A DNA stretch of 37,057 bases from a virus (taxonomy: Duplodnaviria; Heunggongvirae; Uroviricota; Caudoviricetes): positions 1 to 37,057 of the IMG/VR virus record IMGVR_UViG_2648501920_000014; one strand, given 5' to 3'. This document shows, piece by piece, positions 1 to 37,057 of this stretch. Every line of letters starts with the position of its first letter. Within the stretch, counting starts at the first letter, position 1. The position numbers and the translations under genes are program-made. A model generated the notes under the pieces. It saw nothing but the letters and a program-made list of their open reading frames with translations, searched no databases and was not told the DNA's origin.

Positions 1-483
1 CTATCTGGTCAGGGTGTCGTACTGTTTTTCACAGACTCTTCCGGCTTCGGCTGCCCGGTCAGCATACTCTGCCAGTTGTCTGTTTCTCTCGAGAGATTTA
101 CTGAGCACGTCGGCAAGCAAAACTCCGGTGTCTGCGGCTGACGTCCCAGCGCCGACAATGGCGTTATACTGCCTGAGCTGCTCACGGATGGCAACGAGCT
201 GTTGCTGCAACCTGCCAGCGCGAGCTGCAGCATCAAGAGCATCATTGCGCGCCTGGTCGATCCTCTGCTGCGCTTCACGTTCATTGATCGCTTTCTCCTG
301 TTCGTAGTGCTGACGAATTCTCTCATCTTCGGTTTTGCGGTCTTCTTTCGCCTGCGCATACCCGGCGTCGTACTGACGACTGCCGTGTACACTCCAGGCA
401 ACAACTCCTGATATGACCAGAACAGCAAGCACCGCCATGATAATCAACTGTTTCCGGTATGCTTTTACGAATGCCAAGATCAT
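1..483 (-). CDS. Rz-like i-spanin (lysis)
   Basis: ATG at 483, stop at 1-3; N-terminal TM helix then Q/R/E/A-rich coiled-coil; last gene of the lysis cassette, overlaps endolysin stop by 4 nt. Confidence 0.6.
9..284 (-). CDS. Rz1-like o-spanin lipoprotein embedded in Rz
   Basis: Alternative frame fully inside Rz; ATG at 284; basic n-region [12 protein letters not shown], hydrophobic core, lipobox LAGC, Ser/Pro/Thr-rich mature part. Start choice uncertain (ATG at 245 also possible). Confidence 0.4.
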   Translation of the reverse strand: MNVKRSRGSTRRAMMLLMLQLALAGCSNSSLPSVSSSGSITPLSALGRQPQTPEFCLPTCSVNLSRETDNWQSMLTGQPKPEESVKNSTTP

Positions 484-2000: not shown

Positions 2001-2297
2001 TCAAATAGAGAAATAAACACAAAAACAAAAAACAACAGGAACAGCAAAATCCAACAGACTTCCCACATCCCACACGCGTGGATCAAAACCTCCCCACCAC
2101 GGCATGTTGATACGTTTCCCTTTCCCAAACTTTTCTATCCAGCGATATTCTGCCTGGGTGTGTTCACGCGCAATGAAGAACGTACAACCGGCTATCGCAC
2201 CGTAAGCCCAGTTTCCGGTAAAAATACCAACCAGTACCTGAGCCACAAAAGCGCAAAGCGAGTGAAGAAATGGAGTGACATCAATGCTCTTAATCAT
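2001..2297 (-). CDS. Small hydrophobic membrane protein, function unknown
   Basis: ATG at 2297 overlapping tail fibre stop (ATGA); 98 aa, hydrophobic, AT-rich gene between tail fibre and lysis genes. Confidence 0.4.
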   Translation of the reverse strand: MIKSIDVTPFLHSLCAFVAQVLVGIFTGNWAYGAIAGCTFFIAREHTQAEYRWIEKFGKGKRINMPWWGGFDPRVWDVGSLLDFAVPVVFCFCVYFSI

Positions 2298-4483
2298 GAA
2301 ACTTCCCCATTGGTTGAAAATATGGCTCCTCCAACGCCAAGTGTATTTCGTGTTGTGCTCAACCTCAGAGGGCTGGAGTCAGAATTAGAATATCCTGTAG
2401 CAGAAATAAAAGATCCTCCACTAATAGTCAACTGCGGAACATCGGCTATATCTGAATAAGTTCTGTCAGCAACAGTATTATTTATAGCCACATATGATCC
2501 AAAAAAACTTCTTATTGTTTGGTTTTTAACTTTACTTCCTTCAATGGTTATCCTACTACCACAGTCGGCAATAAATCCTGAATCTGCATCCAGCGTTGCA
2601 TTCATAAAAGAAGCTTCAGATCTCTCTACATCAATCCATCTAATATCTTTTGTGGGATTTGCACCAAATACATGACAAATATTAGAGTTAAACCTTACAC
2701 CATCTTGGAGGTGCATTAATTTTTTTATATCTGTACCCCATAGCCTTGGAAAATTAACAGATGCTCCTGCATGGCAATCAAATCCCAGCTCAGCCCCTGA
2801 GATATCTACAGCCTTTCCTGAAATAACAGCACCAGTGTCTGCATTAACGGCTGTTCCACAATTGCGCATATCATTACCAGCAACATCAACGCAACCCGCA
2901 CCATCAATACGCACACCAAGTGCACATCCATAAAAACCTTTTTCAATATTTGGTTCAAGGACTTTACCACTTGTTTCTGCATCACTTTCTTCAACGTCAT
3001 GTCGTCTTGCATCAACATATGCTGTATGAATGCAGGTTAATCCACGATATGAGCAATGTATAGTTTTATGGTCGCGTATATTAACATTTGAACCATCTCT
3101 TACATTCCATCCTATATAACAATAGCTTGCACTTGACCCCTGAAAATCTGCTTTAACATTATAAATACAATTAACTGACGCAACCGTACTCTCTGTGCAC
3201 CGTTCAAACTTGCTTACAGGCATTGATGCCTTGACATTATTTACCAGTTGCAGGGAAGAGTATCTGCTATAAGAAAAATCACATACGTAATACCCTTCTG
3301 GCATATATGCAGCAACACTTTCCTCATCAGGAGCACATCCGGTATGATATGCACTAATTTTTGCACCAAAACTACCATGAATTCCAACGTAGAACTTTCG
3401 AGCACCTGAATACGGATAGAAATTAAGTTCAGCTTTTTGAGTTACAATAAATGCACAAACATCGCTATCATCTCTATTTTCTTCGATCTGAATAGCAAAT
3501 ACAGGACTTTTTGCTGCATCGCAAATGTAAAATAAATACTTGTATTCGTAATACGTTCTAACGATTTTAGTAAACAAACGAGTGTCAGAGAAAACCACTG
3601 AGTCTTCTGATGTTATTTTAATCCAAGACAAATCAACACCTGAACTGAATTCAATTTGATAGTTGATAATATGCCCGGTCTTAATTCTTATTTCGCAGAA
3701 AGCATTACCACCATCCCACATAGGTCTCATTGACTGGGCTGCAATGATTGCATCTTTGAGTGTAGGGTAATCACCCCATTCGCCAACAGTAATAACAAAA
3801 GTATAATATGAGTTAAAAACAGCGGCATTTTTGCCTTTGGATATCAACTCCTTAATCATAAAAATATTATCTTCGTAATCACAAGGAGAAATTATATCCC
3901 TCATTTTGCTTTGAAATGTTCGTTGTCTTGCCCCGCTTCCTGACGGTATAAACCAACCAAAACCACCAACAACCCCGGCGATTGCAGCATCGACATAATT
4001 ACGCATTGAGCGATTATTTACAGCGTCCTGCTCAAATGATGGATCTGCAAGGTTAGAAATTTTGTTTTGCTTTGCATCGTAATATTTTGCAAGCAAAGAT
4101 GGTTTCATCAATGCACGTCTGAACCACCCAAAACATCGCTGGATCAGCATCGTCAGGTAGTCAAATGCATCTTCATGAACTTCGGGGAAAAATTTTCCCT
4201 GATTGCGAAGATCAGTCTCCTGCACCACATCAAGCACACGCTCTATCGTAATTCGCCAGCCAGCAGCAAGCGGCGACGGGAGAACCACTTCACCGCCACT
4301 ATAAGTGCCCGCTCCAGTTACCTTATAACCGGTATCCAGAACCAATTCTGTTACGTTCCCGTTCAGGTCAGACACCTGAACAACCAGGTCGGTTTTTTTG
4401 AAAATACGGAAGGTATACGGAAATGATGTCGTAACGCCGTTACCGGTGTATTCGTTGTGGTCAACTTCGGTTGAGACCGTCAT
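2294..4483 (-). CDS. Tail fibre / tailspike with T7-type N-terminal anchor and beta-helix-like distal receptor-binding region
   Basis: ATG at 4483; first ~110 aa match the T7 tail-fibre N-terminal pattern; remainder is Gly/Asn/Asp/Val/Ile/Cys-rich and visibly AT-rich. Confidence 0.7.
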   Translation of the reverse strand: MTVSTEVDHNEYTGNGVTTSFPYTFRIFKKTDLVVQVSDLNGNVTELVLDTGYKVTGAGTYSGGEVVLPSPLAAGWRITIERVLDVVQETDLRNQGKFFPEVHEDAFDYLTMLIQRCFGWFRRALMKPSLLAKYYDAKQNKISNLADPSFEQDAVNNRSMRNYVDAAIAGVVGGFGWFIPSGSGARQRTFQSKMRDIISPCDYEDNIFMIKELISKGKNAAVFNSYYTFVITVGEWGDYPTLKDAIIAAQSMRPMWDGGNAFCEIRIKTGHIINYQIEFSSGVDLSWIKITSEDSVVFSDTRLFTKIVRTYYEYKYLFYICDAAKSPVFAIQIEENRDDSDVCAFIVTQKAELNFYPYSGARKFYVGIHGSFGAKISAYHTGCAPDEESVAAYMPEGYYVCDFSYSRYSSLQLVNNVKASMPVSKFERCTESTVASVNCIYNVKADFQGSSASYCYIGWNVRDGSNVNIRDHKTIHCSYRGLTCIHTAYVDARRHDVEESDAETSGKVLEPNIEKGFYGCALGVRIDGAGCVDVAGNDMRNCGTAVNADTGAVISGKAVDISGAELGFDCHAGASVNFPRLWGTDIKKLMHLQDGVRFNSNICHVFGANPTKDIRWIDVERSEASFMNATLDADSGFIADCGSRITIEGSKVKNQTIRSFFGSYVAINNTVADRTYSDIADVPQLTISGGSFISATGYSNSDSSPLRLSTTRNTLGVGGAIFSTNGEVS

Positions 4484-6061: not shown

Positions 6062-6229
6062 ATGACAGCGTTGAAAAATCGTACTCAGCACAATGAACAA
6101 GCCAAGCAATGCTGGGATGTCATTGGAAAAGTTATGCTTGGCCGCGCAAGCAAAGAGCGCGACAAGGATATGGTTTACCAGACAGGAACATCTTTCAGCG
6201 ACTTCAAGGCGGCATTTCGCTCCAAATAG
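6062..6229 (+). CDS. Small protein (55 aa), unknown function; first gene of an AT-rich two-gene cassette
   Basis: ATG at 6062, GGAGG SD at 6051-6055, stop TAG 6227-6229; below the 60-aa track cutoff, read by hand. Confidence 0.4.
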   Translation: MTALKNRTQHNEQAKQCWDVIGKVMLGRASKERDKDMVYQTGTSFSDFKAAFRSK

Positions 6230-6249
6230 AAGCACATCAGGAGTTTTCC

Positions 6250-6690
6250 TTGAAGTTTAACATTAGAATATCTAATAGTTTTCTACATGGGGAAAGCAAC
6301 ACCCCTTTCGCTGTAGACGGACCTTTCCTTACTGATGATGAAATAAAAATCATACAAAGTTTTTTAGAGGATGTTGCCAATGGAAGGGCGCTTGTTGGAA
6401 AAAACAAGCCCTCGTGGGTTGATGATAACCATGATAAAATTCCCGGCTCAGACAATTATGAGCAAGAGAATTATTGGCATTATCATTGTGGGCCAACATG
6501 GTATCCAAACACATTTAAGAATTATACCATTAACTTAAATTTCAACCCTGGCGGAAGGCATTCTAATGAATGCATTCATTATGCAAAAAATGATAATGAA
6601 ATTGTCATTGTTGGATTTTCAAGAGAACACATACCTTTCCTTTCATCAGATGGAAACAACAATCCGCTTTTTAATGATGAAGAAGAATAG
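6250..6690 (+). CDS. Hypothetical protein (~146 aa), acidic C-terminus (NDEEE), AT-rich
   Basis: No internal Met; most plausible start is TTG 6250 with AGGAG SD at 6239-6243 (track ORF begins at ATG 6109, which would overlap the upstream gene); stop TAG 6688-6690. Confidence 0.45.
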   Translation: MKFNIRISNSFLHGESNTPFAVDGPFLTDDEIKIIQSFLEDVANGRALVGKNKPSWVDDNHDKIPGSDNYEQENYWHYHCGPTWYPNTFKNYTINLNFNPGGRHSNECIHYAKNDNEIVIVGFSREHIPFLSSDGNNNPLFNDEEE

Positions 6691-6711
6691 CCCGCGCTGC
6701 GGGCTTTTTTG
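6689..6711 (+). terminator. Rho-independent terminator (AGCCCGC-GCT-GCGGGCT + TTTTT)
   Basis: 7-bp GC-rich stem directly after the 6690 stop, followed by a T-run. Confidence 0.6.
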
Positions 6712-6782
6712 TGGGCGAAACAAAAGTCAGTGCTACACTCATTGACGCCACATTGAGGTGGCTTATAGATGGAAATTTCACA

Positions 6783-6944
6783 ATGAAAAAAGCATTTGCT
6801 GCACTGTTCGTTTTGTTGTCTCTGGTAGCTTCAACTCAGGCCTTTGCCGGTCGTTGTCAGCACGACAGCGACACTGCTGCTGACGGCTCCCGCTGCGGTG
6901 GGCGTTCTGCGGATTCCCGCCCTGGTGGCGGTGGCATTCGTTAA
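6783..6944 (+). CDS. Small secreted peptide precursor (53 aa; signal peptide plus ~31-aa Gly/Cys-containing mature part)
   Basis: ATG at 6783; MKKAFAALFVLLSLVASTQAFA looks like a Sec signal peptide with an AFA-G cleavage site; stop TAA 6942-6944; SD is weak. Confidence 0.4.
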   Translation: MKKAFAALFVLLSLVASTQAFAGRCQHDSDTAADGSRCGGRSADSRPGGGGIR

Positions 6945-6966
6945 AAACAAGGCCGCGAAAGCGGCC
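6943..6966 (-). terminator. Hairpin GGCCGC-GAAA-GCGGCC with T-run on the minus strand
   Basis: On the minus strand the hairpin is followed by TTGTTTTT; lies just downstream of the lipoprotein gene end (6983). Confidence 0.45.
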
Positions 6967-6967
6967 T

Positions 6968-6979
6968 GTGACATGTCAC
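6968..6979. repeat. 12-bp perfect palindrome GTGACATGTCAC (copy A)
   Basis: Identical palindrome also at 24071-24082 and 26522-26533; this copy lies between the plus-strand accessory island and the minus-strand lipoprotein gene. Confidence 0.5.
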
Positions 6980-6982
6980 GAC

Positions 6983-7396
6983 TTATAAAGATGACTGATA
7001 TTTTACAACTCTGTTCATGGCATCTTTTTTCACCGAGCTGATATCAGTTCTTATTTTGGCTTCGTCATTACTGCTTATCATGCTATTAATTTTTTGCACT
7101 GACATGCCGTTTCTTTCAGCCATTGCACATACAGCAGCATCGTATGAAGAACTCGCTGCGATGGATATCACCTTGTTACACTCAAACACAGCACCTTCAG
7201 CAATATCAGATGCCGATGAGGCTGGCTTGGTATAAGTCTTGACGTAGTGATCAATACAACTATCCTTCGCCGTCTTGGCAAGAGAAAAATCCATTTTAAC
7301 TTTGTCGCAATATGCCTTATCAACACCGTCATAAACATCATAGGATGTCGAGCAAGCGGATATCAAAAATACCGATAACAGCAATAATTCCTTCAT
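6983..7396 (-). CDS. Lipoprotein (137 aa), AT-rich accessory gene
   Basis: ATG at 7396; signal peptide MKELLLLSVFLISAC with lipobox ISAC; visibly lower GC than flanking virion genes. Confidence 0.6.
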   Translation of the reverse strand: MKELLLLSVFLISACSTSYDVYDGVDKAYCDKVKMDFSLAKTAKDSCIDHYVKTYTKPASSASDIAEGAVFECNKVISIAASSSYDAAVCAMAERNGMSVQKINSMISSNDEAKIRTDISSVKKDAMNRVVKYQSSL

Positions 7397-7405
7397 TGTT
7401 GTTCC

Positions 7406-9880
7406 TTATTGCGGAGTGACATCCTGAGGTCGCCACCAGTATGTCTGGTTAAACTCTTTCTTCGAACGTTGCTCCATTTTACGCAAATAGCCTGGTGAAA
7501 AATACTCCTGCATCTGATTAAAGATCATGTGATCGAGAGCCGCCTTCAAGTACCAGAGATTCGCACCAGGCATCAAACCTTTCCCAAGCTTAACCAGATC
7601 ACCACCAGTCTGCTCATTCTTCCCTTCCACAGCATTTAACGGTATGCCCTGAGCAATCTTCACTACGTCATCAACCAGACCAGCTACCGGGCCAAGCATC
7701 GACGCTAGTGCGCCGCTCCCGTACCTGGTGTGGTCAGAGAAAAGAAAATCACCATACAACCCTGCCCCACCACCTTTTAAAAATGCATTTATCCAGAATT
7801 TAACCATGTTGTCACCGGTCATTTCTTTTGGATTTCTCCCATTAATAAGATCAGTAATCTGCATGGAAAGAGCACCAAGCATGGTTGTGCTTGCTAAAAA
7901 CGTTGCTATATATGCCGCACGCCCACCAGCAGACGGCATCCCCATAGCTCTATGCCAGTGACGCATAACTACCGAGATAGGGAACGATTTAAACAGGAAA
8001 ACACTTCTCGTTAATTCACCTTTCCATGTTCCACGCTGAAGACCAGACCCTACGAACATCTGTTCACGTGCGCCCGGTGTAATAACAGCCATATCAACTT
8101 CTTCAGTTACGGCACCGAGCAGTTTACGCATTGCCTCAAATTTCACGCGTTCAGGCTCACCAAGATGTTTAACTGCTGAATCAGGGATACGCATAATGCT
8201 TTCCGGTGTCAGCATCGTATTATTACCGTTCCCCCAGTCCTCCTGTTGCGCCAGCTTCCATACGCTCCAGTCTGTGTCAGTAATCCCTTTGCTTTTCAGG
8301 ATACGAAAATCAGAGTCATCGAGGCTACGAAGGTCTGGTGTCCGTGACACTACTTCTCCCAGGCTTCCCATCATGGTTACGCCATAGGCGCGCTTGTGCG
8401 CATCTGACCATGCTGTAAGCCCACTGGCACGCATTACCGCCGTTGCCGCCCAACGAGACACAGACGGCCCCATATTATCCATCGCCCAGCGGTTAACGCT
8501 GCCAAGTAGAGATTCCATCGCCAGGCCAGCGCGGCGCGCCCGCGCAAGCTCAGTACGGTTCGTTGGATCCATAGCTTCAAGCTGGTTGCGAAATAACTGG
8601 TTCATTGGAAGGTTGGTAACCTTCGCAGACAGATACATGGTTCCAAGATCAGAGAACGATGACAGCAACGCGGATCCGAGTCTGCTGGCAACCAGCCAGT
8701 TGCGGATATTGTCAGACCATCGCGCGATGTGCGGATTCGCTACAGGCTGTGTTTTTCCGGAAATAAAGTTGTACAGGTTCTCTGTTTTGTTCGCCAGACG
8801 CTCGACGCTACCGGTTTTACTCGGGTTAGCTGTTGCCGTTTCTGCCTTCACCTGATCAAGAAGAGAGCGGAAAACATGATCGGGGTTTGGGCCATATGTT
8901 TCCACCAGTGCAATATCTTTACTGATACCTTCAAGGTGACCGACCATGATTTCCCATAGAGAGCGATCGCCATAAAGTTGCTGATATTGCAGATAGGAAT
9001 CTGCATCTTTGAAATGTATCTGTCGTGATGCATTACCACGGTTAGCACGTGCGCCGGAAATTCGCATTCCGGTATCAGTAAGCTTATTCAGCCCACCAGT
9101 AGCGATCGTGTTATAAGCCTCTCCAAGAAATGCAGACAACTCGGCATCGTTCATCAGTTGTCCATCGGCTCGGGTATAATATTTGCGATCCAGCTTACCT
9201 ATAACATCGCTAACCCATTTATCTTTTGATACCGCCCCAACCTTTTCCATAGAATGATGTTGAGGGATCCCCCAGTTTTCGAGATAGCCAATGTCCCCAC
9301 CAGCATCATTAAACCGGCGGCGCAGCAGCTCTGTAACTTCTCTCCACGCCTTAGCACCTTTTCTTGCTTTAGCATTGCCAGTATTTTGCCCCCGCATTTC
9401 ATATACCAGGTCACGTACGCCCGCTTCATCTTCAAACAGACCAAAAAAGCGAGGATCAACTGCTTCGAATGCCTCCTGCAATTGACTCAATGCATAATCA
9501 CGGGTGGCTTTTGTTCTGGATTCAACAGAGAGGAAATTCGATTTACCGTCTGCATTAAAAGCAATAGTACGGTTAAGAGCGCCAAGTTTCCCATCAGCCC
9601 CTTGATAGCTATTGATAAATTTATCCAATCTCTGACGTGCGGCTATAGTGAGGGCCACACGACGTTTCTTTAATGCCGCTTCTCGCTGTAATTCTTCAGA
9701 TGCCAATTGTGCTGCACGATACAACCGTTCTGATTCGGAAAGTTGTCGCCACGACATCGGGTCATCACGAGCAATGGAGCGCATATTTCGATAAATGCGG
9801 TCTTCAATGTTCTGTATTTCTCGCGCCGTTAACGTGCGCTGCGCCGCCTGCTGGACCGCTTGTATACATTCCTGTCTCAT
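7406..9880 (-). CDS. Large virion internal / ejection protein (824 aa)
   Basis: ATG at 9880; long ORF in the structural operon between internal-protein genes and the tail fibre region; assignment by position and size only. Confidence 0.5.
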   Translation of the reverse strand: MRQECIQAVQQAAQRTLTAREIQNIEDRIYRNMRSIARDDPMSWRQLSESERLYRAAQLASEELQREAALKKRRVALTIAARQRLDKFINSYQGADGKLGALNRTIAFNADGKSNFLSVESRTKATRDYALSQLQEAFEAVDPRFFGLFEDEAGVRDLVYEMRGQNTGNAKARKGAKAWREVTELLRRRFNDAGGDIGYLENWGIPQHHSMEKVGAVSKDKWVSDVIGKLDRKYYTRADGQLMNDAELSAFLGEAYNTIATGGLNKLTDTGMRISGARANRGNASRQIHFKDADSYLQYQQLYGDRSLWEIMVGHLEGISKDIALVETYGPNPDHVFRSLLDQVKAETATANPSKTGSVERLANKTENLYNFISGKTQPVANPHIARWSDNIRNWLVASRLGSALLSSFSDLGTMYLSAKVTNLPMNQLFRNQLEAMDPTNRTELARARRAGLAMESLLGSVNRWAMDNMGPSVSRWAATAVMRASGLTAWSDAHKRAYGVTMMGSLGEVVSRTPDLRSLDDSDFRILKSKGITDTDWSVWKLAQQEDWGNGNNTMLTPESIMRIPDSAVKHLGEPERVKFEAMRKLLGAVTEEVDMAVITPGAREQMFVGSGLQRGTWKGELTRSVFLFKSFPISVVMRHWHRAMGMPSAGGRAAYIATFLASTTMLGALSMQITDLINGRNPKEMTGDNMVKFWINAFLKGGGAGLYGDFLFSDHTRYGSGALASMLGPVAGLVDDVVKIAQGIPLNAVEGKNEQTGGDLVKLGKGLMPGANLWYLKAALDHMIFNQMQEYFSPGYLRKMEQRSKKEFNQTYWWRPQDVTPQ

Positions 9881-9885
9881 TTAAT

Positions 9886-11688
9886 TTAACCTCTCAAGAA
9901 ACACGCCACAGCAACATCAAACAGGCTGGAATCCTGTATTGCCTGCTCACTTTCCCTGTTCGCTTCATCCAGTACTTCACGCGCACTGCGCGATTGTGGA
10001 TTACCATCATCATCCAGCACGGTGATTATCATGTCAGGTGATTCAATCAGCGAGTCTTCAGCTATGCGCAGATCAATATCTCCTGCCTGATCTGACATCA
10101 TTTTTTGTTCTGCCTGTTGCAATATTTTATCAGGCTCAAAAGGAGCTACTTCGTCTGGCGTCCTGACCTCTGCTGTTTTATAGAATGAAACAGCCTGAGC
10201 ATTAAGTTCACTTTCTGCCTGCTGTCTCCGAGCCAGTTCTGCTCGAGCTTCAAAAAACTGACCGCCAGGCTCGTGCGGTGCCAACGCGTTACGGGAAAAT
10301 TCCAGGCGTTCTTGTGCCTGCCGGATTCGTTGATCAATATCGCGAAGTCTGGCCTGTTTATCTGATCGAGCACGAGACAAAGCTTTACCGCTACCGGTTG
10401 GCTCTTCTGCAAGAATTTGTGCACGCTGTTCAGTGAGATTTTCAATAATTCGTTGGCTATTAGCGATTTCAGACTGGTAAACCTGTCTATCTCCACGCGG
10501 CAAAAGCTGCGCGGCCTGTTCTTCAAGCAACCGATTTTCTATAGCGCGCGCCGTTACTCCATCATCTACAGATGACAGAGCCTCATTAACTGCCTGAGAC
10601 AGCAGACTCTTGCGCCAAGGAATTTCACTGAAAGATGCAGACTCAACAATGCTGGAAACGTCTACAGGTCTCCCCTGGCTAACATCAGACATAGCTTTTC
10701 GCAGAGCCTGAATGTGAGAATTGCGCGAAAGCACGTTGATCGGCACGCCGGGCGCAATATCAATTTCAGCATGATGAGCGGCATTCGCCGCCAGTGCAGC
10801 ATCGATATCAACTGGTGAAAAATTTGGTGCGCTTGTAGACTCGCCGCGAGAGTTAATAAATCTGCCGACACCACCAAACGCCACCCCAAGAACAGCATCA
10901 ATAGCAATTGCCTGTCGATCCAACACATCATACTGGTTAGCCATTTCGCTATAGCCACCATCACGAAGTGTTTTTGCAGTAAGCCCACGCTGTGCCATAC
11001 CGAACGCAATATTTGTACCTGCGGCATAGGCAATATCTGGCGTTGCACGTACTGCTGTTGCTGCGGCGCGTCGCACTGAACTCTCACCCGTCCGCGCAAG
11101 CTGAGCCGCCACACCTTCCGCCAGCGCACCACCAGCACGTAACCCGAGGCTCATAGGGATCAGTGTTCCGGCACCAGCAGTAATGCCCTGCACTAATCCC
11201 GCTTCCTGCGCCGTCCTGAAATCAGCACCCTGTGCTGTCAGCCGTTCAAACTCAGAAAAACCCTGTAGCGAAGTTACCGCCGCTGCACCTCCGACAGGAC
11301 CACCGAGCGTTGTACCGACAACAGCCTGCCCGCCCATATCGAACAACCCATAAAGAACCTGCCCGGCGGTTCCGGTTGTCGCGGCATCAGGCGTCAGCCG
11401 CTTAACCTGCTGCTCTGCTAGTTTTCTCTGCTCGGCAATGTATGAAACTGAAGTATCATTGAGCGATGTGTTTTCGTTAATAAACTGAGCAATCGGGGAT
11501 ACGATTTTATCCATCCCTGCCCATAGCAACTGATCTGGCTTTGCCACCAGCCCGGAGTACAAACCAGACAATGCCGCTCCTACAGCATTGTCGAAAAAAC
11601 CAACATAGCTGTTAAAGCCAGCTGGATTTGATGCTGCTTCGTCAAGCTGCTGATTCTGGCTTACTGGATTAAGGCCAAAGTAACTCAT
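9886..11688 (-). CDS. Virion internal protein (600 aa), Gly/Ala-rich
   Basis: ATG at 11688; glycine/alanine-rich central region; structural operon context. Confidence 0.5.
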   Translation of the reverse strand: MSYFGLNPVSQNQQLDEAASNPAGFNSYVGFFDNAVGAALSGLYSGLVAKPDQLLWAGMDKIVSPIAQFINENTSLNDTSVSYIAEQRKLAEQQVKRLTPDAATTGTAGQVLYGLFDMGGQAVVGTTLGGPVGGAAAVTSLQGFSEFERLTAQGADFRTAQEAGLVQGITAGAGTLIPMSLGLRAGGALAEGVAAQLARTGESSVRRAAATAVRATPDIAYAAGTNIAFGMAQRGLTAKTLRDGGYSEMANQYDVLDRQAIAIDAVLGVAFGGVGRFINSRGESTSAPNFSPVDIDAALAANAAHHAEIDIAPGVPINVLSRNSHIQALRKAMSDVSQGRPVDVSSIVESASFSEIPWRKSLLSQAVNEALSSVDDGVTARAIENRLLEEQAAQLLPRGDRQVYQSEIANSQRIIENLTEQRAQILAEEPTGSGKALSRARSDKQARLRDIDQRIRQAQERLEFSRNALAPHEPGGQFFEARAELARRQQAESELNAQAVSFYKTAEVRTPDEVAPFEPDKILQQAEQKMMSDQAGDIDLRIAEDSLIESPDMIITVLDDDGNPQSRSAREVLDEANRESEQAIQDSSLFDVAVACFLRG

Positions 11689-14198
11689 TGCGGAATATCT
11701 CCGGAGAATCTCTGACGTTTCTGTGTCAGATTAAGAACAACGGGAGAACCATCATCTTTCAGCAGATAACCAGTACCAAGTTTCACCAGGTACTGACTAT
11801 CGCCGTAACTTTGCAAACCATACTGACCAGGCGGTGTTTTTATCCCGGAGCCGACAACTTGTTCATTCCAAGCCTGATTAACCTGCTTATCGAATTGCTC
11901 TGCAGACATTCCCCACGGCAAAAGGACATTCCCCATTCCGTTATAGTCATGCACGCCACCTGTAGCTACGTTAACAGCCTGTTTCCAGATATCAGTGTCA
12001 ATTTCGCCTGATATCACGCCTTTTTTCGCCATCACACCAGCGTAATAGTCCTTTGCGATCTCGTATGCCATTGATGCCCCCTGAGCATCACCAGCAAATG
12101 CATCCTTCACCATGTCAGAAAACTCAAGGCGAAGATCAGCATCTTTAGGCATCGGAATACCTTTCGCATCATCAGTACCTTTACGAGCCGCCGCGCCAGT
12201 AAGAATTGTCTGCGCAGCGGTTTCAGGAGACACGGAAACATCCGGATTAAACCAGTTTTTTTCTGCCAAAATACCACCAGGCTTGTCCATCAGTATCCCG
12301 GCAACGGCAGCAGATGGAGCGTTGGCACTGATCTGCTGTAGTGCTGACATATACACCTGCCCACCACCAGTGCTCTGCCTGATGGTATCGAGATATGCTG
12401 CCTGTTGGGAAACTGGAGCATCACGAAAAAAAACACCGATCTGATTGGCCTCGTCTTTGGAAAAGAACGTCAGTGGAGTGCCATATGACTTAGCAAGGTC
12501 ACTGACCTGAGCGGCACGCAAGGCAACGCTCTGTCCAAAGTTATCCTTATTGCTCATGTCGATAGGCTTTGCCTGTCCAGAGGCAAGAGAGAACTGCACA
12601 GGATCAGACTGCCGCTGCTTTATCACCTGATTTGCAGCCGAAACAACGTTGTCATAAAGAGCTGCGCGAGCCGCATAACCCTCCCCTGTCTCACCAGTAT
12701 CCGGGCGTAATTGCTCAACATATGCTGTAATGCTGCTTGTCGGCATGTTGCGGAAAGAGCCTATATACTGTCCGGCGATCTGCGTATTCTTAAACTCGGT
12801 ATATCGCAGGTTTCCTTCTCTGACTCCATAAGCTGCAATAAAATCAGCCTCACCAGGTGGGTTAGGAAATTCAACGCCACGCATATACGCAGCCGTCGCA
12901 TCGCGAACCTGGCTGTCAATCATCGTTTTATATTCAGCCTGCTGCTGCCGACGCAGTTGATCCGCCTGCCGCATAAAACTTGCCTGAGCCTCAGGAGATG
13001 CCGCATCGAATGCTGCATTACCGGTATAGCGTTTGGTGTTGGTTGGAATTGTTGATAAACCAAGTGCTGCACTGACACCAGCAGTTAACTGCTGATCACT
13101 GTATGGCTGGCTACCGTTCTCATGATGGATAATGGCTGCACAAAGCGCCTTCAGGGTATCAGGATTTGATGCATCGAGAGGCTCATCAGCAGAAACGCCA
13201 AGTTGTTCGCACACTGCTTTGATATACGACATAGTGTCATTTTTATCAGTAGGCGGTGCCCAGCGATTAATTATCTCGCTGACGGTATCAATACCCTGCC
13301 GCTGATACGACATCAGGTTCCGCCCTAATGCACGAATCCCGTGTTCAGGTGTTTCGAATTTAGCAAATCTACCATCATCACCGGTCTGGCCTACCCACGG
13401 ATTAGTTTTGCTGTATTCGAGATTTCCGGGGTTATTGTTGCGTATGCCACGGACACGCTCGGAAGAGCCACTATCTGTTACAGCACGGCGAGCTCCAGCA
13501 GCAGTATCACTTAACTCGCCATTACTTTGGATGAATGCGGTCGCATTGTTTGCCGACCACTGGGACAATGCTGCATCAGCAACCTTCTCTTTAAACTCGA
13601 TTTTCTTGGCCTGTATTTGCTCGTCGCTCCAGCCATGTGCAGCACCGTACTCCTCAATTTGCTGGAAAGTTTGCTTATTAGCCAATACGTATGCGGCGTT
13701 GTCGCCATACAATGCTGCGGCATTTTTACCATTGTTCAGCAGCGTAGCCTGAAACTGGCCTTCTTCGTAGGCATTTATTTGCCCTATCTCGTGCCGCCCG
13801 GCCTGCGTAGTGAACTGAATGCGCTGCTGCTGCGCCTGCTGCATGAAAGCATTACGAGCCTGTTCATCCGGCAGCGACATAGCCAATTGTTCGACCTGAG
13901 CATCAAACTGCTGCGTATACTCATGGCCTTTTCCAATAGCATTTTTCCCTTTCAGGTTAAGCAATCCTGTTTCAGGATTATTCAGCAAATCACTGCTTAT
14001 CTGACTGAGGTTAAGAGATGCCTCCTGAGCCAAGGCAATATTGGCACGCTGTTTTGCCTGCCCCAAAACATCAATTGCCTCTGCCCCTGCCCGAACAAAA
14101 GCATCACCAATACCTGGCTGAGAAAACGTCTGCAAGCCTGCTGACTGAACTCCACGGCTCTCAACCTGACGTCCGGATACTGTTGGTACGACTGGCAT
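11685..14198 (-). CDS. Large virion internal protein (~837 aa)
   Basis: ATG at 14198 with GGAGG SD and TAATG overlap with the upstream gene (track ORF extends to GTG 14273). Confidence 0.5.
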   Translation of the reverse strand: MPVVPTVSGRQVESRGVQSAGLQTFSQPGIGDAFVRAGAEAIDVLGQAKQRANIALAQEASLNLSQISSDLLNNPETGLLNLKGKNAIGKGHEYTQQFDAQVEQLAMSLPDEQARNAFMQQAQQQRIQFTTQAGRHEIGQINAYEEGQFQATLLNNGKNAAALYGDNAAYVLANKQTFQQIEEYGAAHGWSDEQIQAKKIEFKEKVADAALSQWSANNATAFIQSNGELSDTAAGARRAVTDSGSSERVRGIRNNNPGNLEYSKTNPWVGQTGDDGRFAKFETPEHGIRALGRNLMSYQRQGIDTVSEIINRWAPPTDKNDTMSYIKAVCEQLGVSADEPLDASNPDTLKALCAAIIHHENGSQPYSDQQLTAGVSAALGLSTIPTNTKRYTGNAAFDAASPEAQASFMRQADQLRRQQQAEYKTMIDSQVRDATAAYMRGVEFPNPPGEADFIAAYGVREGNLRYTEFKNTQIAGQYIGSFRNMPTSSITAYVEQLRPDTGETGEGYAARAALYDNVVSAANQVIKQRQSDPVQFSLASGQAKPIDMSNKDNFGQSVALRAAQVSDLAKSYGTPLTFFSKDEANQIGVFFRDAPVSQQAAYLDTIRQSTGGGQVYMSALQQISANAPSAAVAGILMDKPGGILAEKNWFNPDVSVSPETAAQTILTGAAARKGTDDAKGIPMPKDADLRLEFSDMVKDAFAGDAQGASMAYEIAKDYYAGVMAKKGVISGEIDTDIWKQAVNVATGGVHDYNGMGNVLLPWGMSAEQFDKQVNQAWNEQVVGSGIKTPPGQYGLQSYGDSQYLVKLGTGYLLKDDGSPVVLNLTQKRQRFSGDIPQ

Positions 14199-14743
14199 TA
14201 TAATCCTCCGGGTAATCTGGTTCCTGCTGCTGCTCCGATTGGCGCAGGGGTGCTTTGAGTAAACGGACTCCACGTCCCACCAAACATCTGGTACGCACCG
14301 TATGCCTTCAGAGGCGCAGTGAGCAATGTTGTTGCTGCTCCCACATTCCCCTGTTTACGGGCTGAACTGGCTTCTGCTTTATAGTTGGCAGCCTGAACCT
14401 GATAACCGTAAGCCTCGCGTTGCGCGTTATTCACCGTCGTCAGAGAATCAAGAGCGCCAAACTGGGCAGTGTCGCCAAATATATCCAGCGCGTTACCTGT
14501 AGATAAATCAGCGCCGGTAGCCCCCATTGTCGCCGCCTGTGTACCAAGCCGCTGTCGGGTCTCTCTGCGCCGTTGCTCAGCTTCAGCGTTACCTCTGTTT
14601 ATTGCATCATTTGCCTGAGCTGTGGCTATATCTGCGTTCGCTTCTGCAACCTTCGAGGCATACTTTCCCTGTTGGTACTGGGTGTATGCCTGAATGCCAC
14701 TCATGGCGAGCATTGCGCCACCAGCAATAACCGGATCGCACAT
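14198..14743 (-). CDS. Virion protein (181 aa), Ala/Gly/Gln-rich
   Basis: ATG at 14743; tightly packed in the structural operon. Confidence 0.5.
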   Translation of the reverse strand: MCDPVIAGGAMLAMSGIQAYTQYQQGKYASKVAEANADIATAQANDAINRGNAEAEQRRRETRQRLGTQAATMGATGADLSTGNALDIFGDTAQFGALDSLTTVNNAQREAYGYQVQAANYKAEASSARKQGNVGAATTLLTAPLKAYGAYQMFGGTWSPFTQSTPAPIGAAAGTRLPGGL

Positions 14744-20873: not shown

Positions 20874-21170
20874 TCACTCCTGTTCACTGGCCTCTTTGGC
20901 CATCTTCAAATACTGTTCAGGGCAATGCGCCATAACGCGCTGAAACAGTTCCAGCGCCAGATTGCGTTGCCCCTCATTAAATGCCATTGCCATAGCGTCC
21001 ATCGGTGAGATAGCGGAAAACACACGGCCTTTCTCCAGCACCGACCAGACAACGCGACGCCCCTGTTCACTGCTCATGACAAAGCGAATGTCATCAATTT
21101 CACGCTGTGCCATGTCACGTTGCTTACGGGCGTTTTCTTCTTTCAGTTGATCGTCTTCGTAATCTGTCAT
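20874..21170 (-). CDS. Hypothetical protein (~98 aa)
   Basis: ATG at 21170 overlapping portal stop (ATGA); track ORF starts at GTG 21185. Confidence 0.45.
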   Translation of the reverse strand: MTDYEDDQLKEENARKQRDMAQREIDDIRFVMSSEQGRRVVWSVLEKGRVFSAISPMDAMAMAFNEGQRNLALELFQRVMAHCPEQYLKMAKEASEQE

Positions 21171-23494: not shown

Positions 23495-23571
23495 GTGGCA
23501 TTAGCTCAGTCGGACAGAGCAACCGCCTTCTAAGCGGTTGGTCGCAGGTTCGAATCCTGCATGCCACGCCA
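23495..23571 (+). tRNA. tRNA-Arg (anticodon TCT, reads AGA)
   Basis: Cloverleaf read by hand: acceptor GTGGCAT/ATGCCAC, D-stem GCTC/GAGC, anticodon stem ACCGC/GCGGT with loop CTTCTAA, T-arm GCAGG-TTCGAAT-CCTGC, discriminator G, encoded CCA. Confidence 0.85.
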
Positions 23572-24070: not shown

Positions 24071-24082
24071 GTGACATGTCAC
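24071..24082. repeat. 12-bp perfect palindrome GTGACATGTCAC (copy B), preceded by ATAACACC
   Basis: 5 nt after the DUF2829-like stop; flanking ATAACACC also present at copy C; followed by hairpin AGCCAGC-CTATGA-GCTGGCT. Confidence 0.5.
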
Positions 24083-26521: not shown

Positions 26522-26533
26522 GTGACATGTCAC
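26522..26533. repeat. 12-bp perfect palindrome GTGACATGTCAC (copy C), with ATAACACC nearby
   Basis: 10 nt upstream of ATG 26512 on the minus strand; shares the GGTGTTAT flank with copy B. Confidence 0.5.
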
Positions 26534-35806: not shown

Positions 35807-37057
35807 TTATTCCCCCGCCATCCACTTCTCAAACTTCGACGGGGAGAACGGAATCAGATCCGTATGCTCCCCGTTAATCCAGGAATCAATCATATCGGCC
35901 CACTGCTGCAACATGTAGGCGCGCTGTCTGGCGTATTCCGCTTTGTTATATACGGCGCGCACACCTTTCTGCTCATGTGCCAGAGCCTTTTCAATCCAGT
36001 CTGAAGGATAACCAGCCTCATGCAACAACGTACTGGCTGTACGGCGCATATCGTGTACGGTGAAATCCTGAATATGCTCACCATCTTCATTTATTATTTT
36101 CACCGTTCTGTCGATCAGAGAGTTCAGCGCGGCATTAGATAATGGCTTCCGGAAATTGTAACGACCAGGAACCAGATATTCACTTCCACCAGCGCACATC
36201 TGCAACCCGACCAATATATCCTGAGCCTGTTTAGGCAGGTAAATAACATGCGCCCGGCTTCCCTTCATGCGGTCTGAAGGAATTGTCCATGTCCATTTTT
36301 TAAAATCTATTTCATCCCACGTTGCATTGGTGAATTCGCCCTTACGAACCATAGTGATAAGCACCAGTTTTAAAGCCATTTTCATAGTGCCCATAGCACC
36401 AATGGCATCCAACGTGCGGAAGAACAGGCCAATTTCTTCTGGTGTCAGTGTTCGCTCTCGTGGTTTAAATATGGCGATAGACGAAGGCTTAATGTCAGCC
36501 GCAGGATTAAACAAACCATGACCACGGTCATTGGCGTGACGGTATACGCTGCTGATGATCTCCCTGGCCTGCACTGCTGTTGCCCGGCCACCGCGTTCGA
36601 CAATCCGGTCACACAAATCACGAACCATCGATGTGGTAATTTCAGCCATCATTTTGTTGCCAAGAACCGGAAGTATGTCACGGTCGATCACTGCCTGCTT
36701 CATTGCGCGGGTACTTTCAGCCAGGATGACGTGTTTCATATAACTGTCGGTATGTACCGCAAACGTTTCGGCACCACGAATCTTTTTGATACCGTCACGT
36801 TTAGCCGCAGCCGGTGACTGGCCTGCTTTAAGCAGCTTCTTTGCAGCAATCAGTTCTTCCCGCGCTTCTGCCAGGCTGATACCGTCACGCCCATACTGCC
36901 CGATTACCAGTGTTTCGCGGCGACCGTTGATACGGTAGTCATAACGAAATGAGACCGTGCCTGACGTAAGCACAGCTACATACAGCCCGTCACGATCGGA
37001 GACCTTGTACAGTTTGTCCTGCGGCTTGAGGTTTTTTAATTTTGTATCGGTAAGCAC
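35807..37057 (-). CDS. Tyrosine integrase (phage integrase family), 5' end at the window edge
   Basis: N-terminal arm-type motif LTDTKLKNLKPQDKLYKVSDRDGLYV; C-terminal catalytic region with HDMRRT; first codon at the last window bases is GTG, so 1-2 codons may be missing. Confidence 0.85.
   Translation of the reverse strand: MLTDTKLKNLKPQDKLYKVSDRDGLYVAVLTSGTVSFRYDYRINGRRETLVIGQYGRDGISLAEAREELIAAKKLLKAGQSPAAAKRDGIKKIRGAETFAVHTDSYMKHVILAESTRAMKQAVIDRDILPVLGNKMMAEITTSMVRDLCDRIVERGGRATAVQAREIISSVYRHANDRGHGLFNPAADIKPSSIAIFKPRERTLTPEEIGLFFRTLDAIGAMGTMKMALKLVLITMVRKGEFTNATWDEIDFKKWTWTIPSDRMKGSRAHVIYLPKQAQDILVGLQMCAGGSEYLVPGRYNFRKPLSNAALNSLIDRTVKIINEDGEHIQDFTVHDMRRTASTLLHEAGYPSDWIEKALAHEQKGVRAVYNKAEYARQRAYMLQQWADMIDSWINGEHTDLIPFSPSKFEKWMAGE

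Follow-up and report, generated by a model that had tools for sequence, protein, structure and literature searches.

An AT-rich lipoprotein gene in a variable slot of epsilon15-like prophages: a candidate superinfection-exclusion factor

In phage P22, the sieA gene has ejection gene 16 on one side and tailspike gene 9 on the other; SieA blocks DNA injection, and escape mutations fall in the ejection proteins gp16 and gp20 (PMC10883804). The lipoprotein Llp of phage T5 binds the periplasmic face of FhuA (PMC9586334), and T4 Spackle, a helical bundle with disulfide bonds, inhibits the tail lysozyme and serves superinfection exclusion (PMC7677548). Llp and Spackle are precedents for small exclusion proteins of the periplasm or outer membrane. 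The present analysis concerns a gene encoding a lipoprotein of 137 amino acids (aa) in the IMG/VR virus record IMGVR_UViG_2648501920_000014, positions 1 to 37,057 of which were analyzed as one stretch of 37,057 nucleotides (nt), hereafter the window. The gene family is uncharacterized; in kind, its members are probably phage accessory envelope lipoproteins mediating superinfection exclusion. By comparison with the systems above, the window protein is tentatively read as an outer-membrane-anchored periplasmic exclusion protein that would act on DNA delivery. The gene and the elements adjoining it are listed below (CDS, coding sequence; ORF, open reading frame).

6983..7396, minus strand: lipoprotein CDS, 137 aa; signal peptide codons 1-14 at 7396..7355, Cys15 codon at 7354..7352, stop codon at 6985..6983.
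7402..7407, minus strand: Shine-Dalgarno-like AAGGAA, 5 nt 5' of the ATG and overlapping the TAA stop of the upstream gene (read from the sequence).
6980..7402, minus strand: swappable cassette comprising the ORF, its stop, and the last spacer bases, completely different between related phages.
6968..6979, no strand assigned: GTGACATGTCAC, a perfect palindrome of 12 bp located past the stop codon and before the terminator.
6940..6967, minus strand: intrinsic terminator of the late (virion) operon, with a stem-loop at 6967..6950 followed by a TGTTTTTAAC tail.

The N-terminal part of the translation of ORF 6983..7396, MKELLLLSVFLISACSTSYDVYDGVDKAYCDKVK..., begins with MKELLLLSVFLISA before C15 and contains Lys2, a hydrophobic uncharged core, and the lipobox I-S-A-C15 (LISA before C15). 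By the PROSITE PS51257 rule, which was read manually ([LVI][ASTVI][GAS]C, Cys at position 15-35), the protein is a bacterial lipoprotein, i.e., an Lgt/LspA substrate; the lipoprotein signal with the lipobox ISAC reported in the first-pass annotation of the gene was confirmed at C15. The four further cysteines mentioned there were found as C30, C47, C73, and C90 in a mature domain of ~122 aa, where they form a twin CX16C motif (C30-x16-C47 and C73-x16-C90). The signal peptide is the sole hydrophobic segment of the protein. According to the '+2 rule' of E. coli, lipoproteins without Asp after the lipidated Cys undergo Lol-dependent transfer to the outer membrane. Because residue +2 of the window protein is Ser and not Asp, outer-membrane sorting is predicted, and we infer from these signals that the lipoprotein sits at the inner leaflet of the outer membrane, facing the periplasm.

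An AlphaFold2 model built on a shallow family alignment was all-helical, with a predicted local distance difference test (pLDDT) value of 85 and a predicted TM-score (pTM) of 0.70. Residues 1-17, covering the signal peptide and the first part of the tether, are disordered; the helix of residues 24-55 (32 residues) is paired with those of residues 62-72 and 74-96, and three shorter helices come next. The position sums C30+C90 and C47+C73 both equal 120, i.e., a single antiparallel register, which suggests C30-C90 and C47-C73 disulfides; the modeled domain is probably a long antiparallel hairpin stapled by these two bonds.

The gene is real and under strong purifying selection. Compared with three homologues that are 95-96% identical, the ratio of nonsynonymous to synonymous substitution rates (dN/dS) was 0.05-0.06 at a dS of 0.25-0.5, and the Cedecea homologue (55% identical) has kept the frame, the length, the lipobox, and every cysteine. 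The ORF has a G+C content of 0.394, below the 0.488 of the window and the 0.488-0.509 of the three virion genes upstream of it, in line with the low value remarked on at first pass, and the homologues are AT-rich relative to their own flanks in every context examined. The low G+C content everywhere, together with a dN/dS of ~0.05, indicates a mobile accessory gene with a functional constraint.

The window is a near-complete prophage running from an i-spanin gene (1..483) to an integrase gene (35807..37057). The phage is an epsilon15/phiV10-like temperate podovirus of the genus Uetakevirus, and the lambdoid setting assumed at first pass was abandoned. The locus flanks match phiV10, phiv142-3, HEMP4, SPN1S, and Tyrion, and in E. 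coli UMNK88 the same locus adjoins yfgH/yfgI. The gene order is ejection genes, slot, Bro-N antirepressor, and tailspike, which agrees with the original placement of the gene between the virion genes and the tailspike region. The internal-virion/ejection genes lie upstream of the lipoprotein gene on the same strand.

14198-14743, minus strand: T7-gp14-like ejection protein.
11685-14273, minus strand: gp15-like ejection protein with transglycosylase-type PHROG matches; its Cedecea counterpart has an SLT Pfam domain.
9886-11688, minus strand: gp16-like ejection protein.
7406..9880, minus strand: gp17-like internal virion/ejection protein, 824 aa, matching phrog_684 with E=0; last structural gene of the late operon.
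2294-4483, minus strand: tailspike, beyond the Bro-N antirepressor.

In tblastn, the 824-aa gp17-like protein was 27.5% identical to epsilon15 gp17 and 97% identical to phiV10p20; epsilon15 gp17 is a homologue of the T7 gp16/IVP-D class (PMC4819975).

When the window region was aligned with phiV10, phiv142-3, SPN1S, and Tyrion (alignment A4), near-perfect identity extended to the gp17 stop (...CCGCAATAAGGA) and resumed at CGTGACATGTCAC and the terminator hairpin, with nothing alignable between them. This slot is occupied by a 46-aa peptide with two transmembrane (TM) helices in phiV10 and SPN1S, by gp18 (64 aa, two TM helices) in epsilon15, by a 98-aa multi-TM protein in BUCT711 and phiv142-3, and by a 103-aa TM protein in Tyrion. 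The slot is hypervariable and holds one gene, always for a small envelope protein, between sharply conserved flanks. Such swapping of unrelated proteins is typical of arms-race genes and atypical of assembly genes.

The lipoprotein gene starts 9 nt past the upstream stop; the slot gene starts 10-13 nt past the gp17 stop in phiV10, SPN1S, and Tyrion, as against 136-196 nt in phiv142-3 and BUCT711. The hairpin AGGCCGC-TTTC-GCGGCCT followed by TGTTTTT (6967..6950, minus strand) lies 16 nt past the lipoprotein stop, and it folded better than 200/200 shuffles (z-score -3.5). The phiV10 and epsilon15 records have a terminator annotated at the equivalent position, 3' of the slot gene. Since the hairpin is kept in phages with other slot genes, it belongs to the late operon; the hairpin with a T-run described at first pass does exist, and only its assignment to the lipoprotein gene alone had to be given up. 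The lipoprotein gene is certainly co-transcribed with the virion genes.

The palindrome GTGACATGTCAC occurs exactly at 6968-6979, 24071-24082, and 26522-26533 and with one mismatch at 21107-21118; three exact copies were thus found in 37 kb versus ~0.002 expected by chance. The exact copies stand at late-operon boundaries: one precedes the late terminator, one immediately follows a hairpin 3' of terL, and one is located ~220 nt ahead of terS. At the junction of slot and terminator, the copy is kept, whatever the cassette, in phiV10, phiv142-3, SPN1S, epsilon15, BUCT711, Tyrion, UMNK88, and one Citrobacter prophage, and is not present at the Cedecea and P0022 loci. The palindrome may be a regulator-binding site.

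The window protein matches phrog_8691 over its full length (1-137 of 137, E 1.6e-91), and the homologues P0020 and P0022 match it too; because this PHROG family has no assigned function, the membership adds no mechanism. The Pfam search gave no match at E<=0.1 above noise (Linker_histone with E 0.0011 was below the gathering score, and Trans_coact was noise), and the NCBIfam search gave noise only, leaving the family without a model in either database. A tblastn search against 50,697 phage records had no match even at E<=10, and a PDB sequence profile search returned only designed helical repeats (E>=0.1). When 1.84 billion representatives were searched exhaustively with HMMER, only 7 proteins reached E<=1e-3, to which a profile re-search added a Morganella branch and a plasmid branch only, and a scan of GTDB species representatives yielded one fragment. 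Among 5,426 complete E. coli genomes, the gene is present in 22 (~0.4%) and the gp17-like 3' end, which marks the prophage type, in ~319 (~6%); the exact protein was found on at least 1,000 contigs in a large collection. The members are all lipoproteins of 137-142 aa with the twin CX16C motif, and their five cysteines are invariant down to 26% identity. Their lipoboxes read LSGC, IVGC, ISAC, and LFGC, and residue +2 is Ser or Thr in 8/8 aligned members. The genomic contexts of the family are as follows.

Context 1, prophages of Escherichia, Citrobacter, and Enterobacter: directly 3' of a gp17 that is 87-100% identical.
Context 2, Cedecea homologue, 55% identical: directly 3' of a gp17 that is 24% identical.
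Context 3, P0022, 27% identical: 3' of a gp17 with 26-28% identity, from which one additional ORF separates it.
Context 4, P0018, 44% identical: between the C-terminus of a T7-gp16-like protein (phrog_16310) and an antirepressor.
Context 5, P0020 and P0046, 26-28% identical, 139 aa: stand-alone in Providencia and Morganella integrase/AlpA/DUF3987/YfjJ islands (L039-L041, L058-L061).
Context 6, P0021 and P0047, 142 aa: non-mobilizable Col3M plasmids of 2.4-4 kb from Proteus and Providencia.

In podoviruses, the family thus recurs 3' of the final ejection-protein gene against four divergent backgrounds. The cargo of the Providencia (P0020) islands includes GajB (Gabija), a SIR2 PDC-S25 protein, and restriction enzymes of types I and III, and that of the Morganella (P0046) islands is different and variable; a ThiF-ThiF-UvrA-like trio and a dGTPase-like HD protein were also found among the cargo of the stand-alone islands. 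The lipoprotein gene sits at the island edge, preceded in most islands by a gene for a conserved protein of 589-667 aa without matches in Pfam, PHROG, or PADLOC. Nothing convincing as a promoter was seen upstream of the stand-alone Providencia homologue. The plasmid loci include NZ_CP066834.1 (L062, 4,044 bp) and NZ_CP135992.1 (L063, 2,428 bp) as well as L053-L057. In one 2.4-kb Col3M plasmid, the family member is one of only two annotated genes. A conserved 146-aa protein without a Pfam match is co-carried by the Col3M plasmids, and plasmid variants additionally encode ParA, a pentapeptide-repeat (Qnr-like) protein, or a GNVR protein of Wzz-like type.

Under the exclusion reading, export of the lipoprotein would be followed by lipid attachment at Cys15 and Lol-dependent delivery to the outer membrane, where the mature helical domain would hang on a short tether from the inner leaflet. 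The step affected would come after adsorption, when an infecting short-tailed phage penetrates the peptidoglycan and builds its conduit across the envelope; the lipoprotein might bind a conduit component or inhibit the lytic-transglycosylase domain of a gp15-like ejection protein. Action in the periplasm, most likely under the outer membrane, is suggested because the protein carries export and lipidation signals and its cysteines, which probably form disulfides, are invariant. An anti-phage role is indicated by the swapping of unrelated envelope proteins in the slot, by the AT-richness of the gene and its homologues in every context, and by the relatives in defence islands and tiny plasmids. 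A target in the ejection apparatus fits with the repeated linkage of the family to the last ejection-protein gene in divergent podoviruses. Judging from their loci, the remote homologues would function outside any phage, which also supports exclusion. Nothing contradicts the exclusion or conversion factor proposed at first pass, and the slot, the sieA-like position, and the defence-island and plasmid relatives speak for it; homology to exclusion proteins is the part that failed to appear.

Several points weigh against this reading. The function and the target are both deduced from genomic context, and no homology links the window protein to the exclusion proteins compared (Bor, Cor, Llp, and PADLOC-DB). 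In PADLOC-DB, the window protein, P0020, and P0018 had no match at E<=1, and P0022 and P0021 had noise-level matches only. The island and plasmid homologues are only 26-28% identical and may have another role. A protein tethered to the inner leaflet cannot directly prevent adsorption. The homology and structure search suggested with the first-pass annotation gave no functional family match, and structure comparison found no informative relative of the predicted all-helical fold, so the mechanism is unconstrained by structure. Finally, the lipoprotein gene is certainly a late lytic gene, as seen from the 9-nt gap and the shared operon terminator. A scan for sigma-70-like sites, which a weak or non-sigma-70 promoter could escape, found no consensus match of >=8/12 within 300 nt upstream of the gene, and a scan of 7400-8000 likewise found none on this strand. 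Expression of the gene in the lysogen is only putative, since no promoter was found, the gap is 9 nt, and the terminator is shared. By the classical definition, the gene is not a full moron: it has the deviant G+C content and a sharp insertion between conserved flanks, which bear out part of the comparison with morons made at first pass, and it lacks a detectable promoter and a terminator of its own.

Superinfection could also be excluded at a host protein and not at the phage conduit, if the lipoprotein, like Llp or Cor, bound an outer-membrane secondary receptor or trigger from the periplasm and closed its surface loops allosterically, preventing irreversible binding or the triggering of ejection. 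The predicted location and short tether are those of Llp, which binds FhuA from the periplasm (PMC9586334), the combination of a constant lipoprotein with variable tailspikes fits a conserved protein receptor, and stand-alone plasmid and island homologues would need no phage partner. We consider this improbable: the mature domain resembles neither Llp nor Cor, the window protein is double their size and all-helical, and the tight linkage to ejection-protein genes across divergent phages would be left unexplained. To our knowledge, no protein secondary receptor is known for epsilon15-like phages. A similarly low probability is given to a role late in the lytic cycle, in which the lipoprotein would protect progeny from futile ejection into outer-membrane debris or vesicles, or would modulate lysis timing or envelope integrity. 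Llp has also been proposed to shield progeny T5 from its receptor in debris. The location of the gene inside the late operon with a 9-nt gap, no detected promoter, and the operon terminator in use favors such a role, as do the same conserved flanks around the other slot alleles, and the missing promoter keeps it alive. Nevertheless, a complete lysis cassette lies elsewhere in the window, composed of two holins, a GH19 endolysin, a DUF2514 i-spanin (1..483), and an embedded o-spanin; the homologues in the non-phage islands and on the 2.4-kb plasmid cannot have a lytic-cycle role, and the two-TM inner-membrane peptides of sister phages argue against a single conserved mechanical role.

The least supported reading, and a very improbable one, is a Bor/Iss-like host-fitness or virulence conversion (serum resistance, envelope robustness, or colonization) with no effect on phages. 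The gene does encode a prophage-borne, AT-rich outer-membrane lipoprotein, its carriers include porcine, avian, and human clinical E. coli, and some plasmid relatives travel with the Wzz-like GNVR or pentapeptide-repeat protein. On the other hand, only the signal peptide resembles Bor, and no Lambda_Bor or TraT Pfam match was found; a promoter for expression in the lysogen was not found; the protein is predicted to face the periplasm; and neither the constant position after an ejection gene nor the exchange for tiny peptides of the inner membrane in sister phages suits this role. Three further identities were rejected. An Rz1-like o-spanin does not apply because the proline-rich o-spanin is embedded in the DUF2514 gene and the lipoprotein gene is 5.5 kb from the lysis cassette; the spanins of epsilon15 and phiV10 have already been classified (PMC6139136). 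A virion or assembly protein or a cytoplasmic chaperone is inconsistent with the export signal, the invariant and probably disulfide-forming cysteines, the replacement by unrelated membrane peptides in sister phages, and the plasmid and island homologues. An O-antigen-specific receptor blocker was dismissed because the tailspike receptor domains differ among carriers; for the same reason, the lipoprotein is not tied to O-antigen specificity. The tailspike is of the classic mosaic type: its N-terminal 160 aa are conserved, its receptor-binding part recurs in 1-2 of ~30 related loci carrying the lipoprotein, and its G+C content at third codon positions is 0.29 versus 0.45-0.60 in other structural genes.

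The opposite strand on the 3' side of the lipoprotein gene encodes a 53-aa secreted peptide, a 193-aa ORF, and the Bro-N antirepressor. The features of this neighborhood and of the lysis region are as follows.

6783-6944, plus strand: 53-aa secreted peptide, inside a listed 77-aa ORF (6711-6944), with the signal MKKAFAALFVLLSLVASTQAFA and then a Gly/Cys-containing tail.
6109-6690, plus strand: 193-aa ORF.
9-428, minus strand: o-spanin ORF, out-of-frame inside the DUF2514 gene, with the lipobox LALAGC and a proline-rich tail.

The 53-aa peptide matches phrog_14503 ('membrane associated protein, moron'). A promoter-like site TTGACG-16-TATAGA was recognized by eye upstream of its gene, which is flanked by hairpins at 6689-6705 and 6950-6967; this gene, which runs toward the lipoprotein gene, resembles a canonical moron. 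A 44-nt stretch covering its stop and the shared terminator occurs in ~455 of the 5,426 E. coli genomes. The ORF 6109-6690 has a G+C content of 0.387; its residues 49-189 match phrog_5954 (unknown function), and it has no Pfam match. It is present in only some lipoprotein-bearing prophages, and its neighbor gene in phage TL-2011b is annotated as a YafO-family toxin. The portal and terminase genes have between them a tRNA-Arg gene (anticodon TCT; 23495-23571, plus strand), which the late operon faces from the opposite strand.

If exclusion from the outer-membrane side is true, the lipoprotein would offer a second, mechanistically different handle on the building of the podoviral ejection conduit, and the slot would be a ready-made natural set of unrelated inhibitors for comparison. 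Given that the allele is found in ~0.4% and the prophage type in ~6% of complete E. coli genomes, such genes could shape host ranges in phage therapy and typing. Should there be no phage phenotype, the gene would be one more uncharacterized prophage accessory lipoprotein. In its widest form the proposal is doubtful: the twin-CX16C lipoproteins may be an unrecognized anti-phage family on mobile elements that blocks the podoviral ejection conduit from the periplasmic face of the outer membrane, as an outer-membrane counterpart of P22 SieA, and the slot may be a general exclusion hot-spot of epsilon15-like phages where at least five unrelated envelope proteins converge on one step.

Bor is expressed in the lysogen and affects serum resistance (also according to the record annotation). 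Like Bor/Iss, the window gene is an accessory gene for a prophage-encoded outer-membrane lipoprotein, whereas the Bor gene lies by the lysis genes of a siphovirus, and hhalign of the family profile (A2) aligned lambda Bor with residues 1-20 (signal peptide) only, at a probability of 27%. Llp and the Cor proteins of T1, phi80, and HK022 are likewise small phage lipoproteins; they have intramolecular disulfide(s) and a residue of the Ser/Thr type at +2, they act from the periplasmic face of the outer membrane, and their genes adjoin those of the infection apparatus. They differ in their mature size (~60 versus 122 aa) and in belonging to FhuA-dependent siphoviruses, and Llp has its own promoter. 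In hhalign, T5 Llp aligned over 17 residues, the signal peptide only, and HK022 Cor over the signal peptide region only (probability 32%). The analogy with Bor, Cor, and Llp drawn at first pass therefore does not extend to the family level, where only signal peptides align, although the lack of similarity to Bor noted there was confirmed. With Spackle, the window protein shares a small periplasmic, all-helical, disulfide-bonded character, and the muralytic target of Spackle is paralleled here by the gp15-like transglycosylase-type domain; Spackle is, however, soluble and unlipidated, an early gene product of a virulent myovirus, and neither a fold similarity to its bundle (PDB 6X6O) nor inhibition of a tail muralytic enzyme was established for the window protein. 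SieA has proven exclusion activity, its own promoter, and a polytopic arrangement in the inner membrane, whereas the window protein is a lipoprotein with no TM helix beyond the signal peptide, a mature part predicted to be soluble, and a predicted outer-membrane location; the conserved FxRYPxEAxxFNK motif of SieA (PMC10883804) is absent. The two proteins are thus set apart by these defining features, and not by a direct sequence comparison, which was not made. The setting is nonetheless that of sieA: in both cases, a temperate short-tailed enterobacterial phage encodes an envelope protein, represented by several sequence types and found in only a subset of related phages, and its gene stands close to an antirepressor module, with the last ejection-protein gene on one side and the tailspike gene on the other.

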